NCBI GenBank assembly: GCA_964645535.1
Contig: CAZYCQ010000031.1
Span: 1 to 41,142, forward strand
DNA from: an uncultured archaeon
Lineage (GTDB): Archaea; Asgardarchaeota; Heimdallarchaeia; Heimdallarchaeales; Kariarchaeaceae
Length of the DNA: 41,142 bases
Direction of reading: 5' to 3'
Shown: positions 7,527-15,252 of the stretch, piece by piece
Layout: every line of letters starts with the position of its first letter
Numbering within the stretch: the first letter of the stretch is position 1
The notes under the pieces: generated by a model
Databases searched by the model: none
The model's input: the letters and a program-made list of their open reading frames with translations, nothing else
Told to the model about the DNA's origin: nothing
Made by a program: the position numbers and the translations under genes

Positions 7527-8324
7527 TTAGAAGGCATTGATAATTCCGTCAGGATCAGGTTTTGAAGAAGCCCGGATTTTATTTTTCAATGAATTCCATC
7601 TCTCTCTTGATCTTACATCAATAAGGAGAAAAAAGCCATTTATCACCAAAACATTCGTAACGAGAAAAAATAAGATCTCTTCCAGAGGAAGTATTCCAAA
7701 AAACAAAATTGAGAGAGATTTATCTGGATTGATTGTCCACACCCCGTCAGCAATGGCCAACATATCAGCCAATGACAAATAGATCGTTGTAAGAGATATT
7801 GTCAATCCAATTTTTAGCCAATTTGTAGTTAATAGGTCTAAGCCATAAAATAGTTGGAGAGATATGGGAATGAAGGCCCAACTAATTATTAAAGCCAAGT
7901 ATATCCAATTTGGAGATTGGGTCAATAACAACACAAAACCGAGGATGGATACGCCCAATGCAAGTGTTCCTCCCACCGCATTCCAAATTGTTGGAATTTT
8001 TGGTGGAATTTTTATTGATCCAACTGCCTTCTCGATCAGCAAAAAGACCGAAATTGAAAAAAATGGTTGGAGGATAAAAAAGAGATATTCTTCTAACGGA
8101 ACAAAACCAATTGTAATGCCCAAGACTTTTTCATTGTCATAGTACCAGACCCTGTTTTCAACTAGGTAATTATCCCATGGTGTAGTATAGATTAGGGCAA
8201 TGAGAGCCAAAATTGGAGCAAAAATCAACTTTTCAAAAAAATTATCTATTGAGAGTCCTAAGAACAATATTGCAACCAATGGGACTACAAGAAACAACAC
8301 AAGAAACAACGCATAGGAAAGCAA
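7527..8324 (-). CDS. crtY: Lycopene beta-cyclase, membrane CrtYc/CrtYd-fused type
   Basis: Two tandem cyclase repeats (YTTPWDNYL...VWYY...VPLEEYLFF and LADMLAIADGVW...LPLEEILFF). TTG start 2 bp after the crtI stop. Confidence 0.88.
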   Translation of the reverse strand: MLSYALFLVLFLVVPLVAILFLGLSIDNFFEKLIFAPILALIALIYTTPWDNYLVENRVWYYDNEKVLGITIGFVPLEEYLFFILQPFFSISVFLLIEKAVGSIKIPPKIPTIWNAVGGTLALGVSILGFVLLLTQSPNWIYLALIISWAFIPISLQLFYGLDLLTTNWLKIGLTISLTTIYLSLADMLAIADGVWTINPDKSLSILFFGILPLEEILFFLVTNVLVINGFFLLIDVRSRERWNSLKNKIRASSKPDPDGIINAF

Positions 8325-8326
8325 AC

Positions 8327-9850
8327 TTAACCCTCCGCCTTTAAATCTTCAACTATGAGATCGGTTGTAATCTTCGCTGAAGCAACAACTCCAGGAAGGC
8401 CTGCTCCCGGATGAGTTCCCGCTCCAACAAAATATAATTTTTTGATGTCTTCGGATCGATTGTGAGGTCGAAAATAAGCAGATTGACGGAGGGTTGGCTC
8501 TAGAGAGAAACCAGTTCCTTTGTAAGCCATATAATTTTTCTCGAAATCCTTTGGAGTAAGAATTTTTGTTGCGACTAAGTTTTCATTCAAGCCACTTAGG
8601 TAGTTTTCCTCAAGAAAATCCATTACTTTGTCCTTAAACTTTGGGCCTTCAACTTCCCAATCAATATTTGCATCCAAATTCGGGACAGGAATGAGAATGT
8701 AAAATGCTTCAACCCCTTCAGGAGCCAAAGTTCTGTCAGTTCTTGTTGGGACATGAAGGTAAGCCGAAAAATCATCCGCCAAGATTTTATTCTTAAATAT
8801 ATCTTCCAGGAGCTCCTTGTAACGAGGTCCGAGAATAATCGTATGATGTTTCATGTCAGGATAGAGCTTTTTTGTCGCAAAGTAAATCAGAAACAGTCCC
8901 ATGCTATATTTTGCCTTTTCATACCTCTTGTTCGAATTCTTCTTTCTCCACTTTGAATCAATCAATTTTGTGTAAGTCGTTGCTACATCGGCATTCGATA
9001 CGATAACATCCGCCTCCATTTTTCCCGTATTGGTCACCACACCCCTTGCTTCACCGTCAATAACTTCAATCTTCTCAACGCCTTGGTTCAACAAAATTTT
9101 GCCTCCCATTTCTTCGAAAATCTTAGCTAGGGCTGAAACTAGAGCGTTTGTACCCCCTTGTGCAAACCATACCCCATACTCTTTTTCAAGAAACTGTATT
9201 AGTGAGTAGATGGACGGGACACTGAACGGGTTACCGCCAATAAGGAGAGGATGGAAAGAAAAGACTTGGCGGAGTTTTTCATTCTTAATGTACTTACTAA
9301 TGAGTCCGTAGTTTGAGCGATAAGATTGGAGTTTAATCATATCGGGTACTATTTTAAGCATGCTCCTCAACGAAAGGAACGGAGTGAAAGCAAGCTCTTC
9401 AAAACCCTTGAAGTAAATCTTTTCAACATGTTCAAGCATTTTCGGATAGTTTTCTGCGTCTTTCTTTGAAAATTCCAGAATTTGCTTTACATTATCTTCA
9501 GGTTCTCCATAATCGAATGAAGAACCATCATCAAAAAGAACACGATAATAAGGATAAACTGGAAGCAATTTGACATAATCATCCATCTTCTTTCCCGCAG
9601 TCCTGAACAGTTCTTCAAAGACAAAGGGGGCTGTAATGACAGTAGGTCCTGCATCAAAAGTTACTCCATTGATATTGAATGAAACTGCTCGTCCACCAAT
9701 CTGGCTTTGGCGTTCAAGAATGGTTGTCGAAACGCCTTGTGCTTGTAATCGAATTGCAGCAGCCAAACCACCAAATCCAGATCCAATAACGATAGCTGTT
9801 GGAGACCCCTCTTTCTGCTTTTCTAATGGCGATAGTTGTGAACTAATCAT
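8327..9850 (-). CDS. crtI: Phytoene desaturase
   Basis: GSGFGG FAD-binding motif, GGRA, FDAGPT, FHPLLIGGNP, YFRPHNR, GAGTHPGAGLPGV. ATG at 9850 preferred over 9862 for TATA spacing; start uncertain. Confidence 0.93.
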   Translation of the reverse strand: MISSQLSPLEKQKEGSPTAIVIGSGFGGLAAAIRLQAQGVSTTILERQSQIGGRAVSFNINGVTFDAGPTVITAPFVFEELFRTAGKKMDDYVKLLPVYPYYRVLFDDGSSFDYGEPEDNVKQILEFSKKDAENYPKMLEHVEKIYFKGFEELAFTPFLSLRSMLKIVPDMIKLQSYRSNYGLISKYIKNEKLRQVFSFHPLLIGGNPFSVPSIYSLIQFLEKEYGVWFAQGGTNALVSALAKIFEEMGGKILLNQGVEKIEVIDGEARGVVTNTGKMEADVIVSNADVATTYTKLIDSKWRKKNSNKRYEKAKYSMGLFLIYFATKKLYPDMKHHTIILGPRYKELLEDIFKNKILADDFSAYLHVPTRTDRTLAPEGVEAFYILIPVPNLDANIDWEVEGPKFKDKVMDFLEENYLSGLNENLVATKILTPKDFEKNYMAYKGTGFSLEPTLRQSAYFRPHNRSEDIKKLYFVGAGTHPGAGLPGVVASAKITTDLIVEDLKAEG

Positions 9851-9914
9851 TATTATGTTCATGAACAGAAAATTATTTAAGTTTATTCATGAATAAATGA
9901 TTTGTTCATAAAAA
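9851..9914. promoter_or_regulatory. Divergent crtI/crtB promoter with palindromic operator candidates
   Basis: Perfect palindromes TGTTCATGAACA (9856-9867) and TTTATTCATGAATAAA (9882-9897), a partial site TGTTCATAAAAA (9903-9914), and a minus-strand TATA TTAAATAA (9880-9873). Confidence 0.7.
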
Positions 9915-10928
9915 GTGACTCGTATGACTCTTAACCTTCAAAAAAATGGGCATGAGACAATTCACCTCACAGCGCCCCTAAAAACGTCAAACCTCATGGA
10001 TCAATACATTAGATGTGATCTTCATGGAATTTGTATCCCTGAAGATGATTCACAAGAATTCGCCTACAAAATCCTCCACGAGAAAAGCAAATCATTTTAT
10101 TTTGCCACAATGAGACTCCCTGAGAAATGGCGGACCCCAACTGCAATACTTTATGCTATTTGCAGAATTATTGATGACATAGCAGATGAACCAACTGACC
10201 AAGCCGACGAACAAATTAGTCAACTCAAAGAGCTCTCGGAATTTTTCCGGAACATCAACAGTAAATTTCCATGTCCTAATGAAAATCAGATTTTATTCCA
10301 GACGAAAAATGTAATTCTAGAACATGAGATTCCTGTTTCTCTTTTTGTGGACTTAATTAATGGTGCTCTTTCAGATTTAAAGAAAGTTCAGTACAAAACC
10401 ACTCTTGATCTAATGGACTATTGTTACAGAGTGGCAGGAACAGTGGGTTTAATGATGACTCACCTATTTGTTTCTGATCCCTCTGAGGAAATTCTCATAA
10501 AAGCGAGAAGGTTAGGAGAAGCCCTCCAACTTATCAATATCCTAAGAGATGTAAAAGAAGACTTTCTGATGGAGAGAATCTACTTACCTTCTACCCTTTT
10601 GAAAAGGTTCAATGTAGATCTTAAATCAGTTATCTCAGGATATCTTGATTCAAATTATGTCTCCCTGTTGAAGAGTATTGAATCTATTGCAAAGGATTTG
10701 TTCAGAGAGGGCATGGAAGGAATTTACCTTCTTCCAGAATTTGCAAGGTATCCAATTGGCCTGGCAGCAAATGTATATCTCGGAATTCTTGAAGAAATTG
10801 CGGGTTCAGGATATGACAATATTTCAGCACGTCGTTTTGTCCCAAAATGGAAGAAAATGGTCATTGCCGTTAGATGGAAGTTTACTCTATTATTCAAGAA
10901 TAGTTTTAAACTTTGGAATAGTTCATGA
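9915..10928 (+). CDS. crtB: Phytoene synthase
   Basis: SKSFYFA, RIIDDIADE (DDxxD), YCYRVAGTVG, LQLINILRDVKED and RIYLP motifs; lies next to crtI. Exact start uncertain. Confidence 0.92.
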   Translation: MTRMTLNLQKNGHETIHLTAPLKTSNLMDQYIRCDLHGICIPEDDSQEFAYKILHEKSKSFYFATMRLPEKWRTPTAILYAICRIIDDIADEPTDQADEQISQLKELSEFFRNINSKFPCPNENQILFQTKNVILEHEIPVSLFVDLINGALSDLKKVQYKTTLDLMDYCYRVAGTVGLMMTHLFVSDPSEEILIKARRLGEALQLINILRDVKEDFLMERIYLPSTLLKRFNVDLKSVISGYLDSNYVSLLKSIESIAKDLFREGMEGIYLLPEFARYPIGLAANVYLGILEEIAGSGYDNISARRFVPKWKKMVIAVRWKFTLLFKNSFKLWNSS

Positions 10929-10945
10929 TCATAGGAGATTAAAAT

Positions 10946-11863
10946 ATGGCAACTACCGACCCATCTAATTTGAGCTCAAAAGAAATGATCCTTAACTATC
11001 TCATAGAAAAAAAAGGTCAGAAGGTAGAATTGAGAAAAGTAAGGGAAGATTTAGGACTCAAAAAATCCACATTGTCAAACGCAATCAAGGAATTAAGATT
11101 GCTGGAAAAAATTGAGCTTGAACGAGACAATAATTCAAAGGGGAGACCCACGAGAATTTGGTTAAAAGGAAGTATTGAACAACCAATCCACGAGGGTCCC
11201 ACCATTAAAGATGCAAGTCAGCTTGTCCCCATATATAATATCGATTCTCCAGCTGAGATGATTGATTTTCTTCGATCTAGTAGGTACAATTTTATTGCAA
11301 TGACCGATTGGCTTGAAAAAAACTTCAAAGACAAAATCGACTTAGCCATCAATTTCTTCCTTCCCGTATTGCAGGCAACTGGAAGATTTTGGTATAATGA
11401 AAAAATAACCTCGGCGGATGAACATGCGATTTCCTCTAGATTGGAAGCTTTAATGTATCACTTTTCTGAGTTATTGTCTTCTCCAAATCAAGACATTATT
11501 GTCTTAGCTCCAGTTGAGGGCGACCAACATTATTTAAGCCTAGTTCTTCTGGAAATGATAGTTAGCCCTAAATTTCATTGCATAAATCTGAAGAAGCCTC
11601 TTTCTGTGCAGGACCTTGTTGAATTTATCCGAAATTTAGATCAAGTCCCAAAATACTTATTGGTTAACACAACTATGAATATCTTTCACGGCACCCTGAT
11701 ACGAGAAGTTACTATCCTAAGAAGGGTATTTAAAGATGAATTGAAGATTGTTGTTGCAGGTGCTGGCTTGGAGAGGATGGATTTAACTCCACTAATTGAC
11801 GCTGATAGATTCCTTGTTACACAAGGTGATTGGTTGAACTTTGTCAAAGACCTGATCAATTAA
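10946..11863 (+). CDS. Winged-helix regulator with CarH/LitR-type cobalamin-binding photosensor module
   Basis: N-terminal wHTH (LGLKKSTLSNAIKEL...KGRP); FFLPVLQATGRFWYNEKITSADEH (W149-x9-E159-H160); LAPVEGDQHYLS (D193-x-H195); KIVVAGAG. SD AGGAG at 10933-10937. Confidence 0.8.
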   Translation: MATTDPSNLSSKEMILNYLIEKKGQKVELRKVREDLGLKKSTLSNAIKELRLLEKIELERDNNSKGRPTRIWLKGSIEQPIHEGPTIKDASQLVPIYNIDSPAEMIDFLRSSRYNFIAMTDWLEKNFKDKIDLAINFFLPVLQATGRFWYNEKITSADEHAISSRLEALMYHFSELLSSPNQDIIVLAPVEGDQHYLSLVLLEMIVSPKFHCINLKKPLSVQDLVEFIRNLDQVPKYLLVNTTMNIFHGTLIREVTILRRVFKDELKIVVAGAGLERMDLTPLIDADRFLVTQGDWLNFVKDLIN

Positions 11864-13191
11864 GAGGAAATTGTAATGCGTTTTTTCCAAGGCATTTTTT
11901 CTGCATAAACTTCAGCTTCCTGAAATGCAGATGAAAGATCCATGTGGAACTTCCCATTAGAAATAAGTAACTTGCCATCACAAAACACATGCTGCACCTC
12001 CCGTTTTGTAGCAGAATAGACTACATATGAAAATTCGTTGTAAAGAGGATAGGAATTTGGAAAGGTTGGATTGAGAACTACGATATCTGCTTTCTTACCA
12101 ACCTTTATGCTTCCGATTTCATTTTCCATCCCTAAGGCTTTAGCGCCACCTAAAGTCGCTAAATGGAACACTGTCTTTGCGTCCATAATTTTTGGATCAT
12201 TGGTTGATGCCTTTTGGTAGTAGGAAGCAAGCTTCATTTCGAGGAACATATCATGTCCACCAGTAGCAGGGGAGCCGTCGGTTGCCAGTCCGACATCAAT
12301 TGTTGCTGTGAGAAACTTTGGGACGGGAGAAATGCCAGAGGCGAGCTTTCCATTAGAAGAGGGGTTGTGAGAGATTGAAGTTCCAGATTGCTTAATGAGA
12401 GAAATATCTTTGTCATCAACCCACACACAATGGGCAAGGATTGTTCCTTTACCAAGGACCTTGAGCTCCTGATGGGCTTTGATATAATCGTTTCCTGTCA
12501 TGGTTTTTACAGTTCTGCACTCTTCCAAATTTTCCGCGGCATGGGTATGGTATATTAAACCCCGAGCTGTGGCTTCCTCCTTGGCCCTCTTCATCAGCTC
12601 TTCAGAGCAAGTTATAATGAAACGGGGAGTGTATGCGTATTGCACTCTTCCACCTTTGGGGTTTTGGGAGGCAAGGTAATTGGCTTCTTTGATTGCTTCT
12701 TCTGTTTCTTGGAGAAGTCCAGAGGGTGCGTTCCTGTCCATTAGCATTTTACCGACATGTGCCCGAATTCCAGAATCCCATGCTGCTTTGATAGTTTTGT
12801 CAGCATGGTGAACTGTTGCCATGTCATTTGTTGTGGTAATACCACTGTACAACATCTCAGCGTATCCAATGAGAGAAGATGAATAAGCTTCTTCAGCGTT
12901 TAGAGTAGCCTCCCCTGGAAGAATAACCTCTTGTAACCAATCAAGTAACTCTCTGTCGTCAGCGGCACCTCTGAAAAAGGTCTGAACCGCATGTGAATGT
13001 GTATTCACGAATCCAGGAATAACAATTGAATTTCTATCTCCGTATATGGTATATGAATAGTCCTTTCGTATTCTTTCAAACGGACCGATTTCGATGATAG
13101 ATCCATCTTCAACAACAACCGCGTGATCCTTCAAAACTGGGTTGAATACATCTTGAACTATTCTTCCTCGGATAATGTATCCGTTTGTCAC
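11860..13191 (-). CDS. Amidohydrolase, MTA/SAH/5'-deoxyadenosine deaminase-like
   Basis: PGFVNTHSH, RGAADDRELLDWL, HTHAAE, LAHCVW, HNPSSN, GLATDG and GKKAD motifs; GTG start. Confidence 0.88.
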   Translation of the reverse strand: MTNGYIIRGRIVQDVFNPVLKDHAVVVEDGSIIEIGPFERIRKDYSYTIYGDRNSIVIPGFVNTHSHAVQTFFRGAADDRELLDWLQEVILPGEATLNAEEAYSSSLIGYAEMLYSGITTTNDMATVHHADKTIKAAWDSGIRAHVGKMLMDRNAPSGLLQETEEAIKEANYLASQNPKGGRVQYAYTPRFIITCSEELMKRAKEEATARGLIYHTHAAENLEECRTVKTMTGNDYIKAHQELKVLGKGTILAHCVWVDDKDISLIKQSGTSISHNPSSNGKLASGISPVPKFLTATIDVGLATDGSPATGGHDMFLEMKLASYYQKASTNDPKIMDAKTVFHLATLGGAKALGMENEIGSIKVGKKADIVVLNPTFPNSYPLYNEFSYVVYSATKREVQHVFCDGKLLISNGKFHMDLSSAFQEAEVYAEKMPWKKRITISS

Positions 13192-13291: not shown

Positions 13292-13786
13292 ATGAAGATT
13301 CTTCCAATTGTAGGCGGCTTGAGTATCCTATTTGCTCCAATCGTGCTTAGTATTAGTACGTTTGGGACCAATAATTCAGAGACAACAGTTTTTGGTTTCT
13401 TTTACATAATGACCAGGGTAAAAGTCCTAGGTATCGAAAGTGAATCCCAAGAAATGATACAAGGAGACTGGTTCAGTCAAAATGGTATTTACAACTCTTT
13501 TTTTGGGGATTATATCTTATTTGCCATGATAAGTCTAGTATTGGCAGTAGCCTCAATTTTCATTGGCTTTAGATTCAAGAGGAATCAGTCTGGAAGAATT
13601 GGCGGCCTTACTACTTTGTTGAGTGGGATCATTCTTCTGGTCATTCGATTTCAAGAACTATCCTCAAGAGATAGGTCCTTTTTCTATAGAGATTCGATTT
13701 TCGGGGTAGAGTTTGTCTATACAGAATATCCGATTGCTGCCATAACATCAATCCTTTTAGGGATTTTTGCTTTGCTGAAGGATTAA
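13292..13786 (+). CDS. Hypothetical 4-TM membrane protein
   Basis: 164 aa with four hydrophobic segments and a long first loop; TATA-like TTTTTAA about 25 bp upstream. Confidence 0.7.
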   Translation: MKILPIVGGLSILFAPIVLSISTFGTNNSETTVFGFFYIMTRVKVLGIESESQEMIQGDWFSQNGIYNSFFGDYILFAMISLVLAVASIFIGFRFKRNQSGRIGGLTTLLSGIILLVIRFQELSSRDRSFFYRDSIFGVEFVYTEYPIAAITSILLGIFALLKD

Positions 13787-14229
13787 TAAAGAACCGCGAT
13801 CAGTAAAAGCATCCAACCTAGGAAAATGGCGATTGGCAGCAATTTTTTCCATAATGGCTCGTTTTCTTTCATGGCTCTTGTTCTCAACCTTTCTTCTTCT
13901 TTTATTTTTTTGAGCTGTTCCTTCTTCAATTTCTCGAAATATTGTTTGTTCTTTTTCTTGGCTATGGTTTCTAGTGTGGCTAAATCCTGCTTGAACTTTG
14001 TTTGTATATAGTTGTAAAATTTAGTCATGTCCTCTGCTTCTTGCTGGGTTTTTGGAGCAAGTTCAGTCAATATTCTGGAAGGCATCTCATTTCTGCAAAC
14101 TGGACAGTGAGGTTGCATAAATAACCACGCAGCAAGATGTTCTTTATGAAATCCTGAACTACAAAAGGGACACAAGTAAGGTTTAGTTTCGACCTTGCCG
14201 AAGCAAACATTACAGACTTCGTCTTCCAC
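13783..14229 (-). CDS. RING-finger protein with C-terminal transmembrane anchor (putative E3 ligase)
   Basis: C6,C9,C20,C23,H28,H31,W35,C42,C45 (FHKEHLAAWL...CPVCR); Lys/Glu-rich helix; hydrophobic C-terminal tail. Confidence 0.85.
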   Translation of the reverse strand: MEDEVCNVCFGKVETKPYLCPFCSSGFHKEHLAAWLFMQPHCPVCRNEMPSRILTELAPKTQQEAEDMTKFYNYIQTKFKQDLATLETIAKKKNKQYFEKLKKEQLKKIKEEERLRTRAMKENEPLWKKLLPIAIFLGWMLLLIAVLY

Positions 14230-14358: not shown

Positions 14359-15252
14359 TTGCTTAAACAAATTGTGGTTAAAAAGGCAGTCTCTGATGAG
14401 AGATCATCAGAAGCAAAAGAGGAATCGCCTGAGGTTATTGGAACCTATTTCAAAGTTCTCCGTGATCGAATCCCAAAAGACTATAAAGTTCTGATCGGAT
14501 TTTCGGGCTACGGCAATGTTGGTTTCCTTGCTATCAATCACTTAATTGAACAATTGGATCTTGAGACAGTTGGGATGTGGGGAAATACCATTTGGTATTA
14601 TAAAGGAAGGCTTGAATCACTTGTTACTCTTTACGCTCACCATGAAAGCAAAACCCTCATCCTTGCTTCAAGATATCCCATGCATGTTACCCGAATCCCA
14701 CACGAAGAATGGGAGGAACTTGCTCTTGAAGTGCTATCTTGGAATTGTAAAGCCTATTACATCATTGCCGGATTGAGGGAGGAAACGAGGTCACCAGGTT
14801 CAACTAATTGGGTGGCATACGCACCTACTGCGGAATTTACCAAGAAATTCGGGATTACTCCATCAATGGAGGAAAAGTTGACAATGATCGGACCATTGGC
14901 GACATTCCTTTCTTATGGCACCTCACTCAACCAAAGGGTTCTCGGTCTTTTAATTTACTGCAATTTCGATGAAGATCCAGAAGCGGCACTCTTAAGCCTT
15001 TCAGAAATAGAGAAATTCACGGAAATTCAAGTTCCAAACAAGGAGAAATTACTTTATTTTGATTTCCGTTTTCTTGAAGGTTTGATTAGGGGTCCTAGCA
15101 ATTCGGGGATACAGGACATCATCCAGACATTCTCTGACATGGATCCAGATGATATCGACATCTTGACGGGACAGTTACTTGATGAGGATGAAGATGATGA
15201 TGACGATTTTGAAGATGAAGACGATTACTTCGATTATGAAAACTTGAAGTAG
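14359..15252 (+). CDS. PAC2 family proteasome assembly chaperone with acidic tail
   Basis: LIGFSGYGNVGFLAINHLIEQL and DPEAA motifs of the PAC2 family; C-terminal DEDEDDDDDFEDEDD. Confidence 0.8.
   Translation: MLKQIVVKKAVSDERSSEAKEESPEVIGTYFKVLRDRIPKDYKVLIGFSGYGNVGFLAINHLIEQLDLETVGMWGNTIWYYKGRLESLVTLYAHHESKTLILASRYPMHVTRIPHEEWEELALEVLSWNCKAYYIIAGLREETRSPGSTNWVAYAPTAEFTKKFGITPSMEEKLTMIGPLATFLSYGTSLNQRVLGLLIYCNFDEDPEAALLSLSEIEKFTEIQVPNKEKLLYFDFRFLEGLIRGPSNSGIQDIIQTFSDMDPDDIDILTGQLLDEDEDDDDDFEDEDDYFDYENLK

Follow-up and report, generated by a model that had tools for sequence, protein, structure and literature searches.

The window analysed here, a stretch of 41,142 nucleotides, comes from a hot-spring Asgard archaeon. 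All four open reading frames (cyclase, crtI, crtB and regulator) are present at the locus, where crtI and crtY on the minus strand point away from crtB and the regulator on the plus strand:

7527–8324, minus strand: lycopene cyclase, membrane type, 265 aa (TIGR03462 in two stretches, 115.7 bits; cut-off 39.4)
8327–9862, minus strand: phytoene desaturase CrtI, up to 511 aa (TIGR02734, 593 bits; cut-off 238)
9915–10928, plus strand: phytoene synthase CrtB (Pfam SQS_PSY, 211 bits)
10946–11863, plus strand: regulator, 305 aa (winged helix, flexible linker and CarH-type cobalamin-binding domain)
10976–11164, plus strand: winged-helix DNA-binding domain, residues 11–73 (MarR/HTH_11-like fold)
11234–11860, plus strand: cobalamin-binding domain, residues 97–305 (four-helix cap and Rossmann fold)

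The cyclase has two CarR-like domains of the fused CrtYc/Yd type and a Pfam Lycopene_cyc match, and we infer beta-carotene as the pathway end product from the combination of CrtB, CrtI and cyclase. One copy of crtB was found in the genome. The regulator has a Shine-Dalgarno sequence at 10933.

We observe the regulator family in 16 of 400 Asgard genomes, all of one class, and the Asgard origin proposed from the sequence is upheld; the family genomes are Heimdallarchaeia, mostly Hodarchaeales-titled. The suggested linkage to carotenoid genes, a hallmark of CarH/LitR, is likewise met: crtB lies directly upstream of the regulator in all 16 genomes of the class that carry it (in a 17th crtB genome the sequence stops 14 bp after crtB), the regulator follows crtB in seven of eight further members looked up, and the crtY-crtI/crtB cassette recurs in relatives within unrelated surroundings. 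These counts are not independent, as close kin inherit the cassette by descent. In one relative (G055), uvdE, photolyase and msrA lie co-directionally downstream of crtI-crtY. Photolyase, heliorhodopsin and carotenoid oxygenase were not found in the window's genome (G000), which at 89% completeness does not prove them absent. A convergent amidohydrolase at 11860–13191 has 5'-deoxyadenosine deaminase as its best match, below cut-off; it was considered as a photoproduct scavenger and rejected, not being kept beside the cassette in relatives.

The two domains of the regulator

The peptides quoted in the first-pass annotation occur in the regulator translation, in which the positions of W149, E159, H160, E191 and H195 were verified. 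G146, W149, E159 and H160 are cap residues, with cap helices at residues 130–150 and 156–173 of the AlphaFold model, and G192 and H195 belong to the Rossmann fold. Across the 25 non-redundant family members used for motif counts, the proposed W149-x9-E159-H160 adenosyl-cap motif, in its four-helix bundle as in CarH/LitR, and the predicted Co ligand H195 are invariant, as is G146 (25/25). Aligned to Thermus CarH (5C8A), residues 136–202 run without a gap, so that the His-His spacing of 35 is indeed the same; we take the Thermus cap residues to be W131, E141 and H142, while H132 and H177 agree with the published numbering. D193-Q-H195 provides the lower axial His motif (D/E-x-H) of CarH/LitR. 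The classic motif D/ExHx2G/P-x41-SxT/V-x22-27-GG is not met in full by the window copy, which has S198, N241-T-T and A271-G272 at the correct spacing; relatives keep S-x-T and GG in 22–23 of 25 cases and G/P at +3 in just 7 of 25.

No family member has a His after the Trp. The Tyr at this position and the Ser at the motif Gly, pointed out earlier as peculiarities, are present but not distinctive, since the photocobilin AbDPcob (8J2Y) has both. The GxxW-EH-GxxH-GxxxP (SignatureFinder) signature has been validated for light response (PMC11796333). The window copy meets its GxxW (G146-W149), EH (E159-H160) and GxxH (G192-H195) elements but not the GxxxP loop, carried by photocobilins and CtMerR, where it reads K216-K-P-L-S220; the complete signature is found in 16 of 25 family members.

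Taken alone, the window regulator has no Pfam B12 match, scores 23 bits against a cut-off of 400 with the NCBIfam CarH model (which covers residues 136–227 only), and reaches E 0.003–0.01 in PDB phmmer. The missing Pfam match is due to divergence: homologues exceed the cut-offs for both B12-binding and B12-binding_2, so that the expected Pfam result is obtained for relatives and not for the window copy itself. Homologue searches by word index returned in one case only the regulator itself and in another two relatives, and the homologue set needed genome searches and full HMMER searches. The predicted structure (pLDDT 87) matches B12 photoreceptors, CarH included, in line with the superposition that had been anticipated. 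Best Foldseek matches are 8J2Y (E 3e-9), 8JBT, AerR and CarH 5C8D, and VIA gives Z 20.2 for 8J2W (rmsd 2.8, 199 aligned), 19.2 for 8J2Y, 16.7 for CarH 5C8D (rmsd 2.8, 193 aligned), 16.6 for MetH 1BMT and 17.1 for the heme sensor AppA. Fold scores of this model thus fail to distinguish photoreceptors from AppA or MetH. Sequence profiles match corrinoid proteins, MetH, photocobilins and CarH, with AppA absent among the matches listed. Judged on homologue Pfam passes, motifs in 25/25 members and model-based fold matches together, the likeness to B12 domains is more than chance.

A homodimer modelled without cobalamin scores 0.63 (best control 0.25), above a threshold that 20 of 30 solved pairs and 1 of 23 single chains also pass; runs share at least 48% of contacts with pLDDT of at least 73, and the predicted interface joins cap helix to Rossmann loop, as in CarH. 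This pass may be owed to likeness to the solved CarH and CtMerR dimers.

A flexible linker (residues 79–93) joins this domain to the N-terminal head. Pfam matches of the head are MarR_2, HTH_11 and other winged helices, with MerR absent among those listed, and the recognition helix, conserved across the family (consensus TISNAIKEL), lacks the RxWERRY of CarH/LitR; the earlier claim of a non-MerR head therefore stands, as a generic winged helix. We do not name one winged-helix subfamily, as fold matches are tied at Z 9–10.5. The GRP wing described earlier is present in the window copy but peculiar to it, the family wing being mostly RGRY or KGKY. The head had also been called "swapped": it does differ from MerR, but descent from MerR-CarH is not shown by the tree, in which the Asgard domain forms one clade (100) separate from the MerR-headed clade, near a Nitrososphaerota clade with weak support (87), with direction unresolved. 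We therefore dropped a domain swap from MerR-CarH; the tree is a quick one with SH-aLRT support only and no one-clade test.

Candidate operators at the divergent promoter

Between crtI and crtB, and at the end of crtB, we identify the following elements:

9856–9867: candidate operator O1, perfect 12-bp palindrome, core TTCATGAA at 9858–9865
9867–9881: candidate BRE and TATA box (TATTTAAG at 9874–9881), a conserved TATTTAAATA block in aligned homologous promoters
9882–9897: candidate operator O2, perfect 16-bp palindrome, core TTCATGAA at 9886–9893
9905–9912: candidate operator O3 (TTCATAAA, one mismatch), with 18–19 bp spacing kept in homologues
10922–10929: possible autoregulatory site (TTCATGAT) overlapping the crtB stop, immediately ahead of the regulator's Shine-Dalgarno; weak when taken alone

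O1 lies on the crtI side of the TATA box, ahead of where that gene is expected to start; the core of O2 follows four bases beyond the TATA box, and O3, at a distance of 19 bp from O2, falls where transcription of crtB is expected to begin. The TATA box is readable both ways, from which we infer that this is possibly one bidirectional promoter, and crtI may in fact begin with the ATG at 9850, ~25 nt past the TATA box and without a leader. Sites at the same crtB-regulator junction also occur in six homologous loci (L013–L016, L042 and L044).

At least two copies of TTCATGAA (up to one mismatch) are present in 22 of 22 crtI/crtB promoters examined, against shuffled-sequence means of ~0.01–0.04 exact sites. 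The paired-site pattern is confined to the crt promoter in the genomes of four relatives (reversed control, 0), and the motif is tied to the regulator by the single family member without crt linkage, in which TTCATGAA stands 44 bp ahead of the regulator's start. For the window's genome we rejected a wider regulon (242 exact 8-mers versus 245 expected by chance); no second paired-site promoter stood out there, and no RNA element was listed. The tandem 11-bp direct repeats of CarH/LitR are not found; the palindrome, with its 18–19 bp spacing, overlaps the promoter. Three copies bracketing the TATA box are in keeping with a repressor, and the repression at a TBP/TFB promoter put forward in the first-pass annotation is supported by this conserved operator-like palindrome, in the absence of binding data.

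A probable light-released repressor and its alternatives

What is computed is a two-domain fold, cap and ligand residues, a fixed cassette, palindromes at the TATA box, and genes for making and using AdoCbl. With a probability of roughly two in three, we read the gene as encoding an AdoCbl-dependent repressor that acts on two divergent units, crtI-crtY and crtB-regulator, and is released by light, binding and light response being inferred. By inference from CarH-type domains, AdoCbl would be bound base-off/His-on via H195, with W149, E159 and H160 capping the adenosyl group. In the dark, head-to-tail oligomers would set pairs of winged helices on TTCATGAA sites 18–19 bp apart. Since these sites separate the TATA box from the start sites on both sides, the bound protein would keep the TBP/TFB/RNA polymerase complex from being completed. 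This last step is inferred from archaeal repressors in general; a literature search on this geometry gave no paper. Light would cleave the Co-C bond, shift the cap and release the protein from DNA, whereupon phytoene, lycopene and probably beta-carotene would be made for photoprotection; the regulator, inferred to be co-transcribed with crtB, would probably repress itself. Lack of a His behind the Trp rules out the bis-His light state of Thermus; a water-ligated state like that of CtMerR or AbDPcob would be expected instead. As Thermus CarH H132A mostly remains tetrameric after light (PMC10442372), DNA release without that His needs another route.

It is conceivable, if unlikely, that the regulator reads cobalamin supply or oxidative adenosyl loss and not primarily light, with oxidative stress or a lack of B12 inducing the carotenoids. 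Since apo-CarH is a poor DNA binder, derepression would follow from B12 shortage alone (PMC8156234), and CarH switching requires oxygen as well (PMC10442372). AdoCbl supply, a check suggested earlier, comes out in favour of the light-released repressor: the genome encodes a PduO-type adenosyltransferase, methylmalonyl-CoA mutases and a BtuF-like binding protein. Given no CobS match in this 89% complete genome, the host may depend on cobalamin uptake. Neither did we find the operator at the separate photolyase/heliorhodopsin operons of two relatives (G059 and G068). Nevertheless, AdoCbl in its bound form has a photolabile Co-C bond, tested proteins with the signature responded to green light (PMC11796333), and the target genes serve photoprotection and are followed in G055 by UV-repair genes in the same direction.

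Just as doubtful is a family of B12 photoreceptors in which the window copy has drifted to resemble CarA, using its B12 domain mainly for oligomerisation and being released by another signal or partner. Counting also against the main reading, the window copy is the most divergent family member (mean identity 0.30 versus 0.35–0.45), has the longest branch in the regulator tree, and departs from the family at four conserved pocket or interface residues: N241 replaces Ser and A271 Gly in the nucleotide-tail motif, and K216 and S220 (the lost GxxxP) fall within the predicted dimer interface. CarA of Myxococcus, a B12-independent paralogue that shares the B12-binding fold and acts as a crt repressor, as is proposed for the Asgard regulator, evolved from CarH along this path; CarH is told from CarA by the Trp together with the B12 motif, CarA lacking the cap Trp and needing an antirepressor (PMC9304148). 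The window copy retains G146, W149 (invariant in the family), E159, H160, G192 and H195, GxxxP is missing in other members too, and no antirepressor candidate is seen in the cassette. Furthermore, CrtB of the window shows strong divergence too (mean identity 0.35), indicating that much of the drift is lineage-wide.

AerR (7TE2) and AppA SCHIC (4HH0) of Rhodobacter have the same two-subdomain fold (Z 17–18); both lack a DNA-binding domain and serve as antirepressors acting on CrtJ/PpsR, and AppA SCHIC binds heme. That the Asgard domain binds heme or another tetrapyrrole in this manner and senses oxygen is very hard to sustain: AppA is tied with AerR and CtMerR in VIA, but W-x9-EH, invariant in the family, forms the adenosyl cap in CarH, and no AppA is among the profile matches listed. 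No more credible is an activator, or palindromes belonging to another regulator: protein-motif binding is inferred from co-occurrence only, but the sites are found on the downstream side of the TATA box and not upstream of BRE, the motif accompanies the regulator into a crt-free locus, and recognition helix and motif are both conserved across the family.

The proposed light-released repressor is closest in plan to the AdoCbl photoreceptor-repressors CarH/LitR (Thermus thermophilus 5C8D/5C8E, Myxococcus xanthus, Bacillus megaterium; PMC8156234), with which it shares the helix-cap and Rossmann B12 domain, W-x9-EH, the His ligand at equal spacing, an N-terminal DNA-binding domain on a flexible linker, the carotenoid-cluster location and a predicted head-to-tail dimer. 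It differs in its MarR/HTH_11-like winged helix in place of a MerR head, its 8-bp palindrome at an archaeal TATA box in place of 11-bp direct repeats at a sigma-A promoter, its lack of the His after Trp found in Thermus CarH, its archaeal host and its low NCBIfam CarH score. With light response and binding inferred, the regulator acts in the manner of CarH without belonging to the CarH family. The best sequence and structure matches of its B12 domain are the photocobilins AbDPcob (8J2Y) and SasPcob (8J2W) and CtMerR (8JBS), all light-responsive without a His132 equivalent (PMC11796333); these are all bacterial, with biliverdin-binding and/or diguanylate cyclase domains in photocobilins and a MerR head in CtMerR. 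Among Archaea, Halobacterium Bat and Brz regulate bop and crtB1, placing phytoene synthase transcription under light and oxygen cues, Bat being a PAS/GAF/HTH activator and Brz a zinc-finger protein, with cobalamin not involved (PMC2253796). Uncharacterised Nitrososphaerota W-x9-EH proteins (~285 aa; e.g. MCH2404249.1) share the cap and ligand motifs (hhalign probability 99% against the Asgard B12 domain), but have another N-terminal domain, form a separate clade and, which counts against the main reading, lack crt linkage in the two loci inspected.

In the literature searched, every B12 photoreceptor described is bacterial (PMC8156234, PMC11796333), with no archaeal example among them. A little less firmly than the repressor function itself, we favour a cobalamin photoreceptor transcription factor of Archaea, confined to Heimdallarchaeia, that arose as an independent fusion of B12 domain and winged helix, with a palindromic operator at a TBP/TFB promoter and release without a bis-His switch. 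The surprise is limited, in that neither the sensing chemistry nor the fusion of B12 domains to many output domains is new. A working archaeal case would show that the B12 module couples to the eukaryote-like TBP/TFB machinery, and the protein, as a green-light repressor of hot-spring origin that recognises an 8-bp palindrome, could be used as an optogenetic part. Heimdallarchaeia are an Asgard lineage placed near eukaryotes. Their use of light has so far been argued from rhodopsin and pigment genes (PMC11193907, PMC12137139); with protein, cofactor and short operator named, light regulation of their genes would become testable in vitro without a cultured Asgard archaeon and, if true, would be direct regulatory evidence that Heimdallarchaeia encounter and respond to light.

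A regulator with a cobalamin-binding fold in the carotenoid cassette

The window carries a real regulatory gene, downstream of crtB in a divergent carotenoid cassette:

7527-8324, minus strand: lycopene cyclase, crtY (TIGR03462)
8327-9862, minus strand: phytoene desaturase-type gene crtI (TIGR02734)
9915-10928, plus strand: crtB (Pfam SQS_PSY)
10946-11863, plus strand: regulator, 305-aa open reading frame

We read its product, with a probability of roughly two in three, as an adenosylcobalamin (AdoCbl)-dependent dark repressor of the crt genes that is released by light; what has been computed is the fold, the motifs, the gene cassette, the operator and the cofactor genes, and binding, repression and light release are inferred. 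W149, E159, H160, E191 and H195 lie in the translation where the first-pass annotation placed them, and the 35-residue His-His spacing that it ascribed to Thermus CarH is the same in both proteins (gapless alignment). The best sequence matches among solved structures, the photocobilin 8J2Y (AbDPcob) and Thermus CarH, are weak (E 0.003-0.01). The AlphaFold model, built from 27 sequences (mean pLDDT 87), comprises a winged helix (residues 11-73) joined by a disordered linker (79-93) to a four-helix cap and then a Rossmann fold. Foldseek ranks 8J2Y, CtMerR, AerR and CarH first, and VIA Z scores are 20.2 for 8J2W (SasPcob), 19.2 for 8J2Y, 16.7 for CarH and 16.6 for MetH. The head alone is matched equally well by many winged helices and contains no MerR motif, as the annotation had held.

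Motifs, predicted dimer and cofactor supply

CarH proteins are defined by W-x9-EH plus D/ExHx2G/P-x41-SxT/V-x22-27-GG (PMC8156234, PMC9304148), and light-responsive B12 domains by GxxW, EH, GxxH and GxxxP (PMC11796333). Across 25 non-redundant family members, G146, W149, E159, H160 and H195 are invariant, the whole four-part signature is present in 16, and His at position 150 is found in none. AbDPcob, shown to be light-responsive, shares both the Tyr after Trp and the Ser at the motif Gly, indicating that neither argues against function. The missing His132 equivalent still counts, because the Thermus CarH H132A variant largely fails to dissociate (PMC10442372).

The window copy has K216, S220, N241 and A271 in place of the family's G, P, S and G, a combination found in no other of the 25 members; it is the most divergent member, and its CrtB has likewise diverged. 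Drift of this copy to a CarA-like state can be entertained, though we consider it unlikely. In the predicted homodimer, helix 155-172 packs against loop 213-227, as in CarH-type head-to-tail dimers. This model scored 0.63 (best control, 0.25), with contact agreement of at least 48% and pLDDT of at least 73, passing a mark that 20 of 30 solved pairs and 1 of 23 single chains also pass; resemblance to dimers of known structure may account for this.

The window's genome (G000; 3.6 Mb, 89% complete, same genus as G003) encodes a PduO-type cobalamin adenosyltransferase, an activity that the annotation had wanted sought; three relatives have a CobA-type enzyme instead. It also encodes methylmalonyl-CoA mutase together with a longer mutase fusion, and its class III binding protein matches BtuF below threshold. 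CobS was not found in this 89% complete genome, which makes uptake the likelier source of cobalamin. An open frame of 1158 aa (G000:C3:105066-106748) contains a methylmalonyl-CoA mutase domain and would fit an IcmF-type fusion, adding to the AdoCbl users of this genome. The regulator might instead sense B12 supply or oxidation, for which we see only a slim chance, and a heme or oxygen sensor is very improbable.

Candidate operator and gene neighborhood

In aligned crtI/crtB intergenic regions, a conserved TATA block is followed by two TTCATGAA palindromes spaced 18-19 bp. Exact copies occur in 21 of 22 promoters, and all 22 have two or more copies when one mismatch is allowed; dinucleotide shuffles yield 0.00-0.04 exact copies per region. 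In the whole genomes of four relatives the paired pattern is confined to the crtI/crtB promoter (reversed control, 0). The window copies at 9858, 9886 and 9905 flank both sides of the TATA box (9874-9881), and genome-wide, exact sites form a close pair at only two places besides this promoter. At the junction between crtB and the regulator gene, a weaker site is found repeatedly. One exact copy (L029:4215) also lies 44 bp before the start of P0014 (L029:4259-5194), a family member without crt neighbors, indicating that the palindrome follows the regulator. That the regulator binds these sites is inferred, without binding data, and we give very little credence to an activator or to a different protein on the palindromes. 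P0014 has the full signature; the gene divergent from it encodes 304 aa and matches phosphoribosyltransferases only weakly.

The proposed crt linkage holds in relatives: crtB adjoins the regulator in all 16 genomes of the class that carry it, and in one further genome with such a crtB the contig ends 14 bp from crtB. These genomes are kin, and the counts are not independent tests. The order crtY-crtI/crtB-regulator is constant in the loci read, with variable flanks, and among the 8 members looked up at greater evolutionary distance, 7 sit after crtB, P0014 being the exception.

In the Asgard genome G055, the crtI strand continues behind the operator with short gaps (L008:3-8329) through crtI, crtY, a 399-aa unknown, a flavin-binding-like protein, a Rieske oxygenase, a 139-aa unknown, uvdE, photolyase and msrA, possibly a light-stress operon. 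In Hodarchaeota-type genomes (L052:3046-10514, L053:4554-8305, L054:9024-9833), heliorhodopsin is either close to uvdE and photolyase or some 8 kb away from the crt cassette; the separate photolyase/heliorhodopsin operons showed no paired operator. Some relatives have second crtI-like and crtB-like genes downstream of the regulator (L055:9415-11917, L021:4149-6055). In the window, an amidohydrolase gene (11860-13191, minus strand) overlaps the regulator stop by 4 bp; its best match is 5'-deoxyadenosine deaminase (441 bits versus a cut-off of 522), and it is not conserved beside the cassette. Farther on, the genes for a RING-finger protein with a hydrophobic C-terminal tail (13783-14229, minus strand) and for an acidic-tailed PAC2 proteasome assembly chaperone (14359-15252, plus strand) point away from each other.

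Distribution, origin and relation to CarH

The window DNA is present in hot-spring metagenomes, and a strain from a second study shows 114 differences and no gaps across the whole cassette. When 1.84 billion representatives were searched with a profile, a tight family of 16 proteins emerged (E <1e-30), below which the matches drop to B12-domain proteins of about 290 aa with MerR, XRE or thaumarchaeal heads. Of 400 Asgard genomes, 16 carry the family, and all of these are Heimdallarchaeia (14 of the 22 genomes of one genus, and two in the window's genus). Among longer variants (L026:4158-5303, L031:3252-4352, L043:4222-5364, L045:2388-3479, L017, L019 and L021-L023), some gain a further winged-helix-like domain at the N-terminus, and in others about 70 aa are inserted between head and B12 domain.

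We infer, without light or binding data, that the regulator acts in the manner of CarH. It nevertheless falls outside CarH: its head is not of the MerR type, its candidate operator is not a direct repeat, and it does not match the lower motif in full. The annotation's "swapped" head stands as a non-MerR head but not as descent from a MerR-headed CarH: a quick tree groups the Asgard B12 domains as a single clade (SH-aLRT 100) separate from the MerR-headed one, so that, as far as sequences can tell, independent fusion would be as likely as a domain swap. A separate W-x9-EH family with another head in Nitrososphaerota indicates that archaeal CarH-type domains are not limited to the Asgard lineage. 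That family, which has both the cap and the ligand motifs of the CarH type, is widespread (L034:398-1246; L035:2437-3285, P0025; relatives P0037 and P0041), with argininosuccinate lyase and succinate dehydrogenase genes adjoining at the loci seen. Other Heimdallarchaeia (L050:1302-2372 in G040, L051:2278-3333 in G022) encode 352-357 aa W-x9-EH and B12-domain proteins with a different N-terminal region and no crt linkage, of a size reminiscent of globin-like/photocobilin fusions; the L050 protein scores 57.6 bits on the CarH model.

No archaeal B12 photoreceptor was found in the literature searched (subscription papers outside scope), and archaea are absent from the SignatureFinder text (PMC11796333; its online network outside scope). 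Known archaeal control of crtB is by Bat and Brz (PMC2253796). Under the light-released repressor reading, the AdoCbl-bound regulator would repress in the dark by occupying the palindromes that separate the TATA box from the start site on either side; light would break the Co-C bond, the regulator would leave the DNA, and phytoene, lycopene and probably beta-carotene would be produced.
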